Shown here: positions 36,486 through 63,728 of the stretch, piece by piece
Numbering within the stretch: position 1 is the stretch's first letter
Layout: each line of letters opens with the position of its first letter
NCBI RefSeq assembly: GCF_044704955.1
Contig: NC_091996.1
Coordinates: forward strand, 86,366,001-86,430,000
Reading direction: 5' to 3'
DNA length: 64,000 nt
Source of the DNA: Pristiophorus japonicus
Taxonomy: Eukaryota
The notes under the pieces: model-generated
What the model saw: the letters and a program-made list of their open reading frames with translations, nothing else
Database searches by the model: none
Told to the model about the DNA's origin: nothing
Made by a program: the position numbers and the translations under genes

Positions 36486-37372
36486 GTGTCAGCTGTGACT
36501 CAGTGAGCAGCACTCTCTCTCTCGCCTCCGAGTCAGAAGGTCGTGGGTTTAAGCCCCACTCTAGGGACTTGAGCACATAAATCCAAGCTGACACTCCCAG
36601 TGCAGTACTGAGGGAGCGCCGCACTGTCGGAGGGGCAGTACTGAGGGAGCGCTGCAAGGTCGGAGGTGCCACCTTTCGGACGAGACGTTAAACTGAGGCC
36701 CCGTCTGCTCTCTCAGGCGGACATAAAAGATCGCACGGCACTATTTCGAAGAAGAGCAGGGGGAGTTATCCCCGGTGTCCTGGGGCCAATATTTATCCCT
36801 CAACCAACATAACAAAAAAAACAGATTATCTGGGTCATTATCACATTGCTGTTTGTGGGAACTTGCTGTGCGCAAATTGGCTGCCGCGTTTCCCATATTA
36901 CAACCGTCTCAAAATGCTTTATAGCCAATTAAGTACTTTTGGCGTGTAGTCACTGTTGTAATGTAGGAAACGTGGCAGCCAATTTGCGCACAGCAAGCTC
37001 CCACACACAGCAATGTGACAATGACCAGATAATCTGTTTTTGTTATGTTGATTGAGAGATAAATATTGGCCCCAGGACACCAGGGAGAACTCCCCTGCTC
37101 TTCTTCGAAATAGTGGCCGTGGGATCTGTTACATCCACCCGAGAGGGCAGGCGGGGCCTCGGTTTAACGTCTCATGCGAAAGACGGCTCCTCCGACAGTG
37201 CGGCGCTCCCTCAGTACTGCCCCTCCGACAGTGCGGTGCTACCTCAGTACTGCCCCTCCGACAGTGCGGCACTCCCTCAGCACTGCACTGGGAGTGTCGG
37301 CCTAGAGTGGGACTTGAACCCACAACCTTCTGACTCAGAGACGAGTGTGCTGCCCACTAAGTCACAGCGGAC
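36486..37372. mobile_element. Tail-to-tail inverted SINE pair in CYB5D1 intron 2
   Basis: Plus copy 36486-36905 (2 units) directly abuts a minus copy 36905-37372 (3 units). Confidence 0.85.
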
Positions 37373-38667
37373 AGTTAAGGGGAACTGATAGGGTAGATGG
37401 AGAGAAGCTATTCCCGCTGGTTGGGGAGTCGAGGTCAAGGGGGCATAATCTAAAAGTTAAGAGCCAGGCCTTTCAGGAGTGAAATTAGGAAATACTTCTA
37501 CACACACAGGGTGGTGGGAGCTTGGAACTCTCTTCCGTAAACGGCAATTGATGCTAGGTCAATTGTTAATTTTAAATCTGAGACTGATAGATTTTTGTTA
37601 ACCAAAGGCATTAAGGGACATGGGCCAAGGGCGGATGGATATATGGAGTTAGGTCACGGATCAGCTATGATCCTAGTGAATGGTGGAATAGGCTTGAGGG
37701 GCTGAATGGCCTCCTCATGTTCCTATGTTCCGAGCTCGTCTGTATGAAGTACGTTCTTATTGCGAAGCTAGTCAGCCAATTAAGGTTTCCCAATTCCACC
37801 CTCCTTACTCCTGAAGGCACTGCCTCTGGCTGGGGTGTGGTCATATCGACTCCAAAGGCACTCTGCTAACTTTGCCCCCCCACTCTTCAGATTCAACCGT
37901 GAGCGTGAGCCTGGCCTTGTTCTCAATGCCGTGCACACACTCTCCACCAGGGGTCACTGGAGAGCAAGCAAGAGCAGGAAAATCATAGAATCACAGAAAT
38001 TTACAGCACGGAAGGAGGCCATTTCGGCCCATCGTGTCTGCACCGGCCGACAAAGAGCCACCCAGCCTAATCCCACTTTCCAGCTCTTGGTCCGTAGCCC
38101 TGCAGGTTACGGCACTTCAAGTGCACATCCAAGTACTTTTTAAATGTGGTGAGGGTTTCTGCCTCTATCACCCTTTCAGGCAGTGAGTTCCAGACCCCCA
38201 CCACCCTCTGGGTGAAGACATTTCCCCTCAAATCCCCTCTAAACCTCCCACCAATTACTTTAAATCTATGCCCTCTGGTTATTAAACCCTTGTACAATTA
38301 ACAGATGGGAGGCAATTAACATAGGATACATTGAAGAGGAAGCTATGCAAGTACTTGTATTTATATAGCGCCTTTCACGACCACCGGATGTCACAAAGCT
38401 CTTTACAGCCAATGAAGTACTTTTGGAGTGTAGTCACTGTTGTAATGTAAACATTGCAGCCAATCTGCGCACAGCAAGCTCCCACAAACAGCAACGTGAT
38501 AATGACCCAGATCATCTGGTTTTGTTATGTTGATTGAGGGATAAATATTGGCCCCAGGACACCGGGGAGAACTCCCCCTGCTCTTCGAAATAGTGGCCAT
38601 GGGATCTTTTACATTCACCAGAGAGAGCAGACGGGGCCTCGGTTTAACATCTCATCTGAAAGATGGC

Positions 38668-38961
38668 CCCTCCGACAGTGCGGCGCTCCCTCAGCACTGC
38701 CCCTCCGACAGTGCGGCGCTCCCTCAGCACCGCCCCTCCGACAGTGCGGCGCTCCTCAGCACCGCCCCTCCGACAGTGCGGCGCTCCCTCAGCACCGCCC
38801 CTCCGACAGTGCGGCGCTCCCTCAGCACCGCCCCTCCGACAGTGCGGCGCTCCCTCAGCACTGACCCTCCGACAGTGCGGCGCTCCCTCAGCACTGACCC
38901 TCCGACAGTGCGGCGCTCCCTCAGCACTGACCCTCCGACAGTGCGGCGCTTCCTCAGCACT
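38668..38961 (-). repeat. 33-bp SINE-internal minisatellite (about 9 units)
   Basis: Unit GCAGTGCTGAGGGAGCGCCGCACTGTCGGAGGG within SINE 38355-39070. Confidence 0.93.
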
Positions 38962-39445
38962 GCACTGGGAGTGTCGGCCTGGATTTATGTGCTCAAGTCC
39001 CTGGAGTGGGACTCGAACCCACAACCTTCTGACTCAGAGGCGAGTGTGCTACCCACTGAGCAACGGCTGAAACCATGAGGGAGAAAGGAATAGAAGGATA
39101 TGCTGATGGGGTGAGATGAAGAGGGATAGGAGGAAGCCGGTGTGCAGCATAAACACCGGCACGGACCAGCGGGGCCGAATGGCCCATTTCTGTGTTGCAA
39201 ATTCTTTATAATTTCATTAATCCTGAACTTGTCAGCCGTGTTTAATTGCAATTGCTGCCGATTGCAAACGATCAGCACCATGTGCCCGATTTAAGTGGCT
39301 ATCTGGGATAAGCATCGACAGGGTCAGTGTTGGGGACTGCAGTCCTTAGTGGGAGAGGTGAACTGTTTAGAAGGTTGGTGAAAGGCTTCTGTTGTCTCCA
39401 TGTGTCATCAGACCCCCTCCGCTCCTCCCACTCTCCTTCCTTCCT

Positions 39446-39482
39446 CCCACTCCACTCCACTCCACTCCACTCCACTCCACTC
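39446..39482 (+). repeat. (CTCCA)n microsatellite
   Basis: About 7 pentamers, about 25 nt from the CYB5D1 exon 2 donor. Confidence 0.9.
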
Positions 39483-39507
39483 CTCCGGGTTGAGGTTCAG
39501 TACTTAC

Positions 39508-61093: not shown

Positions 61094-61488
61094 CAGCGAG
61101 CACAGGGGGTGATGGGTGAGCGGAACTTGGTGTGAGTTAGGACACGGGGCAGCGAGCACAGGGGGTGATGGATGAGCGGGACTTGGTGCGAGTTAGGACA
61201 CGGGGCAGCGAGCACAGGAGGTGATGGGTGAGCGGGACTAGGTGCGAGTTAGGACACGGGGCAGCAAGCACAGGAGGTGATGGGTGAGCGGGACTGGGTG
61301 CGAGTTAGGACACGGGGCAGTGAGCACAGGGGGTGATGGGTGAGCGGGACTGGGTGCGAGTTAGGACACGGGGCAGCGAGCATAGGGGGTGATGGGTGAG
61401 CGGGACTGGGTGCGAGTTAGGACACGGGGCAGCGAGCATAGGGGGTGATGGGTGAGCGGGACTCGGTGCGCGTTAGGACACGGGGCAG
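61094..61488 (-). repeat. 56-bp L2-internal minisatellite (7 units)
   Basis: Same unit within L2 60755-61490. Confidence 0.92.
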
Positions 61489-61939
61489 TCGAGAGAAAGA
61501 AAAACTGAAGGGATTCTTTGCATGTTTCCAACGCCAAGGGCAGTTCCCCCACTCCCAGTCAGAGGTGGACTCAGTTACACAGCAAACAAAAAATACTAGG
61601 GAGGCAAGAAAGAAAGACTTGCATTTATATAGCGCCTTTCATGACCACCGGACATCTCAAAGTGCTTTACAGCCAATGAAGTACTTTTGGAGTGCAGTCA
61701 CTGTTGTAATGTGGGAAACGCGACAGCCAATTTGTGCAAAGCAAGCTCCCACAAACAGCAATGTGATAATGACCCAGATCATCTGTTTTAGTGATGTTGA
61801 TTGAGGGATAAATATTGGCCCCAGGACACCGGGGAGAACTCCCCCTGCTCTTCTGCAAAATAGTGGCCATGGGATCTTTTACATCCACCTGAGAGAGCAG
61901 ACGGGGCCTCGGTTTAACGTCTCATCTGAAAGATGGCAC

Positions 61940-62662
61940 CTCCGACAGTGCGGCACTCCCTCAGCACTGCGCCTCTGACAGTGCGGCGCTCCCTCAGTAC
62001 TGCCCCTCCGACAGTGCGGCGCTCCCTCAGTACTGCCCCTCCGACAGTGCGGCGCTCCCTCAGTACTGCCCCTCCGACAGTGCGGCGCTCCCTCAGTACT
62101 GCCCCTCCGACAGTGCGGCACTCCCTCAGTACTACCCCTCCGACAGTGCGGCGCTCCCTCAGCACCACCCCTCCGACAGTGCGGCGCTCCCTCAGTACTG
62201 CCCCTCCGACAGTGCGGCGCTCCCTCAGTACTGCCCCTCCGACAGTGCGGCGCTCCCTCAGCACTGCCCCTCCGACAGTGCGGCACTCCCTCAGCACTGC
62301 CCCTCCGACAGTGCGGCGCTCCCTCAGCACTGCCCCTCCGACAGTGCGGCGCTCCCTCAGTACTGCCCCTCCGACAGTGCGGCGCTCCCTCAGCACTGCC
62401 CCTCCGACAGTGCAGCGCTCCCTCAGTACTGCCCCTCCGACAGTGCGGCGCTCCCTCAGCACTGCCCCTCCGACAGTGCGGCGCTCCCTCAGCACTGCCC
62501 CTCCGACATTGCGGCGCTCCCTCAGTACTGCCCCTCCGACAGTGCGGCGCTCCCTCAGCACTGCCCCTCCGACAGTGCGGCACTCCCTCAGCACTGCCCC
62601 TCCGACAGTGCGGCGCTCCCTCAGTACTGCCCCTCCGACAGTGCGGCGCTCCCTCAGTACTG
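61940..62662 (-). repeat. 33-bp SINE-internal minisatellite (about 22 units)
   Basis: Within SINE 61610-62680. Confidence 0.95.
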
Positions 62663-62998
62663 CACTGGGAGTGTCGGCCTCCACAGAGAATAACTGAACA
62701 ACAGATCCATTGCCGATGAGTGGACAAGTTTTGAAGTTTAATCAGGGTCACATCTCCAGCAGTCAGAACAGTAATTAATCATTTTTTCTAAACGTTCAGT
62801 CTCTGGTTTTATGTTAAGCAATGTTCAGCTGCACTTAACAAACTGGACACTACGAGTTGAAGCTGTGGAGGTTCGGGGGCAGGTCTCTGATGCTCTTGTC
62901 CAGGGGTTTAAACAAATCTGGAGGGGGCTGAAATTGCCCGTGCTGGATTAGCACATCATTCGAATTAGTGCGTCGATTTGTGCCGGCGCTGGAACCAA

Positions 62999-63728
62999 CA
63001 GCCGTGGCTCAGTGGGCAGCACTCTCGCCTCTGAGTCAGAAGGTTGTGGGTTCGAGTCCCACTCCAGGGACTTGAGCACAAAAATCCAGGCTGACACTCC
63101 CAGTGCAGTACTGAGGGAGCGCCGCACTGTCGGAGGGGCAGTGCTGAGGGAGCGCCGCACTGTCGGAGGGGCAGTGCTGAGGGAGCGCCGCACTGTCGGA
63201 GGGGCAGTGCTGAGGGAGCGCCGCACTGTCGGAGGGGCAGTGCTGAGGGAGCGCCGCACTGTCGGAGGGGCAGTGCTGAGGGAGCGCCGCACTGTCGGAG
63301 GGGCAGTGCTGAGGGAGCGCCGCACTGTCGGAGGGGCAGTACTGAGGGAGCCCCGCACTGTCGGAGGGGCAGTACTGAGGGAGCCCCGCACTGTCGGAGG
63401 TGCCGTCTTTCGGATGAGACGTTAAACCAAGGCCCCGTCTGCTCTCTCAGATGGATGTAAAAGATCCCACGGCCACTATTTCGCAGAAGAGCAGGGGAGT
63501 TCTCCCCGGTGTCCTGGGGCCAATATTTATCCCTCAATCAACATAACAAAAAAACAGATTATCTGGGTTATTATCACATTGTTGTGTGTGGGAGCTTGCT
63601 GTGTGCAAATTAGCTGCAGCATTTCCCACATTACAACAGTGACTACACTCCAAAAGTACTTCATTGGCTGTAAAGCGTTTTGAGACGGCCGGTGGTCGTG
63701 AACGACGCTATATAAATCCAAGTCTTTC
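62999..63728 (+). mobile_element. Full-length Deu-type SINE with 9 internal 33-bp units (63106-63402)
   Basis: Intact A box TGGCTCAGTGG, B box GGTTCGAGTCC, body and tail. Confidence 0.9.

Follow-up and report, generated by a model that had tools for sequence, protein, structure and literature searches.

A 33-bp minisatellite at a fixed internal site of a shark SINE carries a junction letter shared between loci and absent from both parental ends

The region analyzed is a 64-kb window of the genome of the shark Pristiophorus japonicus (assembly GCF_044704955.1, contig NC_091996.1, positions 86,366,001 to 86,430,000 of the forward strand). It contains the gene CYB5D1, all four coding exons of which map at 93–100%, and 19 copies of a short interspersed element (SINE) that cover one particular internal site. 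At this site a 33-bp unit is present once in 10 of the 19 copies and is amplified into a tandem array in the other 9, four of these arrays lying in CYB5D1 introns. Together the nine arrays hold 101 units, or about 3.3 kb, and almost every joint between their units bears a G where both ends of the single unit carry T. All counts below refer to this one window and its 19 copies. Self-repeats cover 61% of the window, its GC content ranges from 41 to 62% per 2 kb, and tandem repeats are abundant by Tandem Repeats Finder (TRF). An assembly gap of 135 N lies in its left part, at ~4109–4246; no N lies within or close to an array. A frame scan returned 116 frames, of which 9 were assigned to a family, among them fragments of reverse transcriptase from a long interspersed element (LINE). 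CYB5D1 exon 1 is 100% identical over 46 amino acids to a protein labelled Pristiophorus japonicus and the next two matches are sharks, as expected of a cartilaginous-fish host.

Arrays were located by a fuzzy search for the 33-bp unit and by TRF, and SINE copies by BLAST with a single-unit copy. A first-pass annotation, made from the letters alone, had counted 2, 3, 9, 13, 15, 26, 2, 22 and 9 units in the nine arrays, and all of these counts were reproduced (Table 1). The four single-unit copies it had named were verified (units at 22071, 24460, 43244 and 59237), and we found six more, at 2419, 7135, 14801, 21702, 22675 and 30907. Its claim of a fixed internal site also held: in every array the unit occupies positions ~116–148 of the ~470-bp SINE by BLAST against the single-unit reference copy, and the TRF listing of the window contains no array at any other site of the SINE. 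SINE-derived satellites are expected to have four or more middle monomers and to occur in one register at more than one locus; six of the nine arrays have 9–26 units. Additionally, the units run head to tail, are shorter than the SINE and end in a terminal unit that continues into SINE sequence. They are also more alike than the host SINE copies, diverging from the modal unit by 2.8%, against 7.7% for eight single units and a host SINE divergence of 6.4%, although taking the modal unit from the arrays makes their divergence look smaller. Thus, the feature is real and behaves as a SINE-derived minisatellite.

Table 1. Positions of the SINE copies covering the unit site, the LINE-derived arrays and the CYB5D1 gene in the window.
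Feature	Position	Strand	Array or unit	Remarks
SINE copy	36487..36907	+	2 units, 36602-36667	CYB5D1 intron 2
SINE copy	36905..37374	-	3 units, 37188-37286	CYB5D1 intron 2; 27-bp head deletion; tail-to-tail with copy 36487..36907
SINE copy	38353..39070	-	9 units, 38668-38963	CYB5D1 intron 2; terminal unit also ends in G
SINE copy, headless	39934..41154	-	13 units, 40729-41149	begins in 5-nt junction remnant 41150-41154; body interrupted by LINE fragment ~40180-40642; starts 11 nt downstream of CYB5D1 exon-1 donor
SINE copy	45285..46245	+	15 units, 45348-45842	downstream of LSM-domain exon; head deletion and insertion 45895-45985
SINE copy, older type	50440..51579	+	26 units, 50547-51394	
SINE copy	57317..57671	+	2 units, 57373-57437	32-bp period, one junction G fewer
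SINE copy, 5'-truncated	61609..62680	-	22 units, 61938-62663	starts 17 nt before array
SINE copy, full-length	62995..63729	+	9 units, 63105-63401	A-/B-box-like motifs ~63005-63062
SINE copy	2419..2854	-	single unit	
SINE copy, partial	7135..7322	-	single unit	
SINE copy	14801..15259	-	single unit	
SINE copy, partial	21702..21971	-	single unit	head-to-head with copy 21960..22430
SINE copy, full-length	21960..22430	+	single unit, 22071-22103	reference copy
SINE copy, 5' part only	22675..22836	+	single unit	
SINE copy, full-length	24350..24809	+	single unit, 24460-24492	
SINE copy, older type	30907..31337	-	single unit, 31197-31229	unit with C1 and A9
SINE copy, full-length	42932..43387	-	single unit, 43244-43276	
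SINE copy	59144..59583	+	single unit, 59237-59269	
56-bp LINE arrays	5140-5421(-), 27022-27639(+), 43736-44258(-), 61094-61493(-)		5-11 units	
CYB5D1	32318..41307	-		coding exons 41164-41307, 39496-39585, 36220-36441, 32318-32548

Full-length single-unit copies span about 455–475 bp in the window. At 63005–63062 the head aligns to the Rfam tRNA model, but its score of 15.6 bits (E 0.9) falls short of the gathering score, 29; A- and B-box-like motifs lie inside this weak match. ARAGORN found no tRNA gene in the window and Rfam no match there at the gathering score. Over 56 bp the SINE tail matches that of a LINE at 75% (E 5e-4), and the matching LINE tails sit at 28045–28067 and 5770–5790 (E 3e-4). 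From the motif at the translated end of its second open reading frame (ORF2), we take this partner LINE to be L2-like. The SINE is presumably SacSINE1, of the DeuSINE group, a name assigned by description, and its center probably resembles the Deu domain. In the accessible portions of PMC5499810, PMC4824008 and PMC2746220, SacSINE1/DeuSINE elements share with ours a shark host, a length of about 465–475 bp and a 3' tail in common with an L2-type LINE; their tRNA-like head has a probable counterpart in the weak tRNA match here, and the 463 bp described for SacSINE1 (PMC2746220) agree with the single-unit length here. No tandem form is mentioned in those portions ('tandem' and 'minisatellite' occur 0 times in PMC5499810, 'tandem' 0 times in PMC4824008). 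Membership of SacSINE1 is likely on that published description, and the element is best explained as a shark SINE with a probable tRNA-derived head that an L2-like LINE mobilises.

In a single-unit copy the unit starts at CCCAGT/GCAGT and ends at GGAGGT/GCCGT (slash, unit boundary). Since both of these parent ends carry T, slippage anywhere in the GTGC microhomology must leave a T at the junction. The first-pass annotation had proposed repeated de novo seeding of arrays by hairpin-assisted slippage and had overlooked the letter at this position. Among 93 junctions, comprising 92 internal ones and one remnant, we found G in 91, A in one, C in one and T in none. Terminal units end in T in seven of the nine arrays, and single units do so in 9 of 10 copies. 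The four junctions of the 2- and 3-unit arrays include no T either, and only one of the 93 has a 32-bp period (array at 57373). T>G changes in the host flanks affect 11 of 803 T sites (1.4%), and at this rate the chance of nine independent T>G changes is about 1e-17. Recurrent de novo slippage is thus not supported as the origin of the arrays.

The sequence elements invoked for that model are present: GTGCAGT and GTGCCGT match at 6 of 7 positions at a spacing of 33, and the unit holds a 6-bp inverted repeat with a 12-nt loop. The hairpin was mostly unremarkable, with folding in the range of shuffled sequence for four of five pieces (z = -0.40, -0.97, -1.17 and -1.24); the fifth, the minus-strand dimer, gave z -2.01, with 7 of 200 shuffles equally low. 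Seven-base direct repeats with at least six matches number 40 in one SINE copy, at 21 spacings, and two are perfect. Spacing 33 alone was amplified, while the 20 other spacings with equally good microhomology gave no array in the window. The junction G lengthens a G-run to four, doubles the tracts of at least three G per unit and raises the mean G4Hunter score from 0.46 to 0.76, a modest value, the usual cut-off being about 1.2. The G-run may add instability, and a role for a quadruplex is speculative.

In contrast to seeding, in-place expansion, the other part of the earlier proposal, was borne out. Derived changes cluster among neighbouring units, with 18 adjacent pairs sharing one against 8.2 in shuffled arrays (p=0.001, 3000 shuffles), and 77 sharing pairs lie within the same array against a null mean of 24.9 and a maximum of 43 in 1000 shuffles. 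Identical variant orders at different loci, which the first-pass annotation had named as evidence against its view, were not found: none of 15 array pairs shares a run with at least two non-modal units. Of the variant clusters it had reported as private, the clusters exist (C1 plus A9 in five units at 51131–51361; T1 in three units at 38832–38930), while their privacy does not hold. C1 plus A9 also occurs in the single-unit copy at 31197–31229, and in two of the short-read runs described below (X8 and X13) loose contig ends, 452 and 355 respectively, have GGG-T-CAGT as their consensus junction. None of the six long arrays has a private change in the majority of its units, except A/G at position 6. 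Arrays keep 255 of 282 CpG sites; the host flanks keep 76 of 116, and the single units 16 of 24. Rare variants show no GC bias, with 14 weak-to-strong and 40 strong-to-weak changes in a count that mis-split the first units of the 40729 array. These results support growth and turnover of the arrays in place.

To look beyond the window, we aligned contigs of four public short-read runs, from this and three other organisms, to a 2-unit copy. In all four runs the consensus of the loose letters before the unit start ends in GGAGGG (883, 889, 2134 and 2296 contigs); the 24 loose-end rows listed include none with a T junction (2875 more exist; of 374 letter rows, 40 are listed). In a piece of CYB5D1 exon 3 and intron, run X13 and the window disagree at 14 of 133 bases, which places the G junction in diverged lineages; it is the main listed form across them. 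Joints going back 34, with a variable number of G, occur in 1–6 contigs per run. Summed contig depth on the unit is 13–48 times that on the SINE body and 4–10 times that of the best tail bin in the four runs, a rough measure that gives no copy number and is a sign only that arrays are common beyond this window. Orthologous contigs of runs X7, X8 and X13 end at about 36472, just before the SINE. The unit consensus from loose contig ends of the own-species run, X1, has A6, T16 and T19, whereas of 95 window units 87 have C16, 89 have C19 and 52 have G6; these differences, all weak-to-strong, possibly reflect a GC-rich local or younger class. Scans of metagenome and viral contigs with the unit pattern gave no match, and 15 matches in genome contigs were set aside as chance, being single, 19–35 bp long, bacterial and without SINE flank.

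One junction type on unrelated hosts implies copying between loci, an ancestral array with later collapses, or a recurrent mechanism that writes G. Several findings bear on copying. A tree of the host copies with arrays removed was star-like, with 7 changes of the array label against 6.6 when shuffled. Approximately unbiased (AU) tests of the array hosts as one clade gave p 0.034 with all 19 rows and 0.085 when the 50448 row was left out; dropping three short rows gave 0.006, and dropping these together with 50448 gave 0.022. Three of the four tests reject such a clade. The copy with the 40729 array lacks a head and begins in a junction, and the copy at 61609 begins 17 nt before its array. Such 5' ends are expected of 5' truncation of array-bearing RNA and point to retrotransposition. 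The array at 50547 is a mosaic in which generic units make up the 5' end, and those at the 3' end are of the C1/A9 kind that the single unit at 31197 matches. The nearest tree neighbour of its host, the copy at 50440, is the single-unit copy at 30907 (support 92/90), and the two share 10 non-consensus letters, the most of 18 copies. Additionally, arrays are clustered along the window: the first 8 copies have none and the last 11 have 9, with p=0.029 in a runs test and p=0.006 for position. The mosaic, this clustering, the homogeneity of units with its near-absence of majority private changes, and their CpG retention point to ectopic conversion.

Building on the fixed site, the shared non-parental junction, local growth and occurrence in four organisms, we favor, at a probability of about 0.6, one old junction of single origin whose spread was due to retrotransposition, ectopic conversion or both. 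A single ancient duplication of the 33-bp segment adjoining the SINE head, or very few such duplications, would have left a junction G where both parent ends have T. The junction-bearing array may then have been copied to many SINE loci via retrotransposition of array-bearing sources and/or ectopic gene conversion among the highly abundant SINE copies. Growth and turnover in place followed at each locus, by slippage or unequal exchange between units, as the clustering of variants shows; units near a common sequence and richer in CpG than their hosts would fit a turnover that is recent and includes exchange between loci. A host function is neither required nor apparent.

A number of points weigh against a single origin with spread. 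The tree is almost powerless, with none of 16 inner branches starred and the bootstrap not settled, and one of the four AU tests fails to reject a single clade of hosts. No diagnostic column marks array hosts among 454 (best Fisher p 0.04, lost on correction), and, at this low power, an array-bearing subfamily is not apparent. The headless 40729 copy could be the product of a later deletion, as head deletions also occur in three other array hosts and two single-unit copies. The spatial test is post hoc and confounded with age, array hosts being younger than single-unit copies (6.4% vs 9.6%, p=0.045), and the divergence of array units is understated because the modal unit is array-derived. A minority T-junction class may exist genome-wide, given the 24 loose-end rows and 40 of 374 letter rows from which the main form was read. 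Finally, the evidence base is a single 64-kb window.

Seeding of each array de novo, by hairpin-assisted slippage of its own SINE copy on the GTGC microhomology, has in its favor the microhomology at spacing 33, which is real, the scatter of hosts on the tree, the clustering of variants within arrays and its standing as the established model for Alu-derived minisatellites (PMC3389668 and PMC6947457, in their accessible portions). We nevertheless consider it very improbable: the T it predicts occurs at 0 of 93 junctions, the odds of nine independent T>G changes are prohibitive, four of five pieces fold with z of only -0.4 to -1.2, the other 20 spacings with 6–7 of 7 matches stayed without arrays, and a fixed host-private change is absent from every long array. 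It is largely refuted here. Less easily dismissed, though still unlikely, is recurrent birth by a mechanism that writes or selects the junction G. For example, the L2 reverse transcriptase might jump back 33 nt and add to the cDNA a non-templated C that pairs with the GG at the unit end, template jumping and non-templated addition being known for other non-LTR (long terminal repeat) enzymes. Alternatively, T-junction duplications might be frequent and only quadruplex-capable G ones persist, or GC-biased exchange might convert them to G. Such a mechanism would account for scattered hosts without a subfamily marker and for the variable number of G at the 57373 junction and the back-34 joints, and it is consistent with the G4Hunter score raised by the G and with three of four 56-bp LINE arrays sitting at a 5' truncation point. 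However, the number of G is nearly fixed and slippage in the G-run covers the remainder; even the 2- and 3-unit arrays, with four junctions, show no intermediate bearing T; the LINE arrays are joined by plain microhomology with no added letter; and a score of 0.76 lies under the usual cut-off.

An array ancestral to the whole active family would also yield a single junction type on hosts that are not monophyletic, single-unit copies then being collapses between direct repeats that brought back the T end and left no trace. This agrees with the rough excess of contig depth on the unit in four runs and with single-unit copies being older. We judge it improbable, as the length described for SacSINE1 (PMC2746220, accessible portion) is that of a single-unit copy and as the mosaic of generic and host-like units at 50547 and the spatial clustering would be left unexplained. 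That the arrays are artefacts of assembly is scarcely credible. Array lengths are those of the assembly, and the own-species run has no contig spanning the tested locus 36340–36453, where holes from filtering are expected and prove nothing. Against this, variant orders are structured and differ by locus, some units have internal deletions, terminal units are distinct, and junction-bearing contigs abound in four independent short-read runs; run X1 contains 0.76 of the sampled words of 55700–64000, although it may be the source sample.

Returning to a single origin with spread, a more specific form, which is possible but doubtful, would make the array a selfish mobile minisatellite, born once in an ancestral shark and invading already inserted single-unit SINEs by ectopic gene conversion. 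Conversion would favor near neighbours and be helped by the junction G-run and GC bias. If so, units would evolve in concert genome-wide, CpG-rich arrays would be planted into introns, much of the tandem DNA characteristic of short shark chromosomes would consist of the repeat, and the junction letter would be a ready marker for non-allelic conversion between SINE copies.

SVA is a retroelement with an internal variable number tandem repeat (VNTR). In elements of this type and of the LTR12 type the array lies within the consensus, while 10 of the 19 shark copies are single-unit and no array-marked subfamily is evident; LTR12 (PMC3389668) is otherwise alike in being a dispersed element with a GC- and CpG-rich array whose length varies by locus. 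This and the following comparisons draw on the accessible portions of the papers cited. The closest likeness is to the SINE-derived satellites of squamates (sSat), especially snake sSat3 (PMC10702118), in which a fixed internal segment of a tRNA SINE forms tandem units at many loci common to related species, with few to many units that are closer to each other than SINE copies are and with locus-specific alternating subvariants. sSat units measure about 70–290 nt, against 33 here, and most sSats retain one SINE end, loci with both being uncommon, whereas all nine shark arrays retain the 3' body and eight some 5' sequence. A junction marker is not reported in that portion of the paper, and sharks lie outside its coverage. 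Alu-derived minisatellites (PMC3389668) are likewise cut from a SINE between short direct repeats, grow later in place and affect younger elements more often, as here. They are of low relative abundance, mostly of about 2 units and confined to a single locus (5,747 of 5,932 clusters), unlike the shark arrays, which occur in 9 of 19 copies with up to 26 units, in one register and with a junction letter unexplained by the flanking repeats. The mouse B1-derived VNTR family (Bois et al. 1998, listed in PMC6947457 and PMC9659126) also arose at many loci from one SINE site, with a 6-bp unit from a pre-existing dimer there and a 33-bp unit with a new junction here.

SINE-derived minisatellites are thus already known from snakes, mouse B1 and Alu, and what is new is the shark example. 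A description of the array in sharks was not found in the literature searched, though subscription papers, Repbase/Dfam and bioRxiv supplements may contain one; the accessible portions of two shark genome papers (PMC10468316 and 10.1101/2025.06.08.657570) do not describe it, 'SINE' and 'satellite' occurring 0 times in the latter. Papers on such conversion usually cannot separate repeated birth from a single birth with spread. Here a single junction letter tells them apart, and it speaks against textbook slippage despite the flanking microhomology. If the rough contig depths hold, a sizeable share of shark tandem DNA consists of this repeat. High GC and many simple tandem repeats are reported for short shark chromosomes and for chromosome ends (10.1101/2022.10.17.512540, accessible portion), which the GC range and tandem-repeat richness of the window resemble, and the repeat could help explain the excess on short chromosomes. 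The arrays are also candidate multi-locus VNTR markers.

The window holds a second element-derived minisatellite, with a 56-bp unit from the 3' end of ORF2 of the L2-like partner LINE (Table 1). It is found at four of the seven LINE ends covering its site, and three of the four are 5'-truncated at or within the array. Since these arrays occur on either side of 36 kb, a tendency of the region to expand repeats is not enough by itself to account for the clustering of SINE arrays. Two further arrays, one of 68 bp (7.8 units, 17654–18179) and one of 47 bp (27 units, 34656–35943, in CYB5D1 intron 3), stand alone in the window, with neither a second copy nor an associated element. Degenerate G-rich arrays at 41775–42696 (periods 33/94/126), between the CYB5D1 start and the LSM-domain exon, and at 18689–19038 (47/94) are unrelated to the SINE unit. 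Among the SINE copies, inverted pairs (21594/21702, 21905–21971 and 36905) abut head-to-head or tail-to-tail with no spacer and with truncated ends, a pattern as fold-back deletions would leave. Head deletions of 12–60 bp recur directly upstream of the unit in the copies at 7135, 21702, 36905, 45285 and 57317, some of them falling between CCAGG-like repeats at a spacing of 22.

Other coding features of the window include an LSM-domain exon at 44972–45283(+), presumably NAA38-like, NAA38 being a neighbour of CYB5D1. A pentraxin/laminin-G domain exon lies at 56471–57142(-) and a weak zf-MIZ match, below cut-off, at 55865–56116(-). Lastly, the CYB5D1 exon-1 donor, GTGCTG, looks weak, and splicing at weak donors can be enhanced by G-runs that follow them. 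The G-rich 13-unit array begins 11 nt downstream of this donor (41150–41166, minus strand), and the first bases of intron 1 match 7 nt of the unit.

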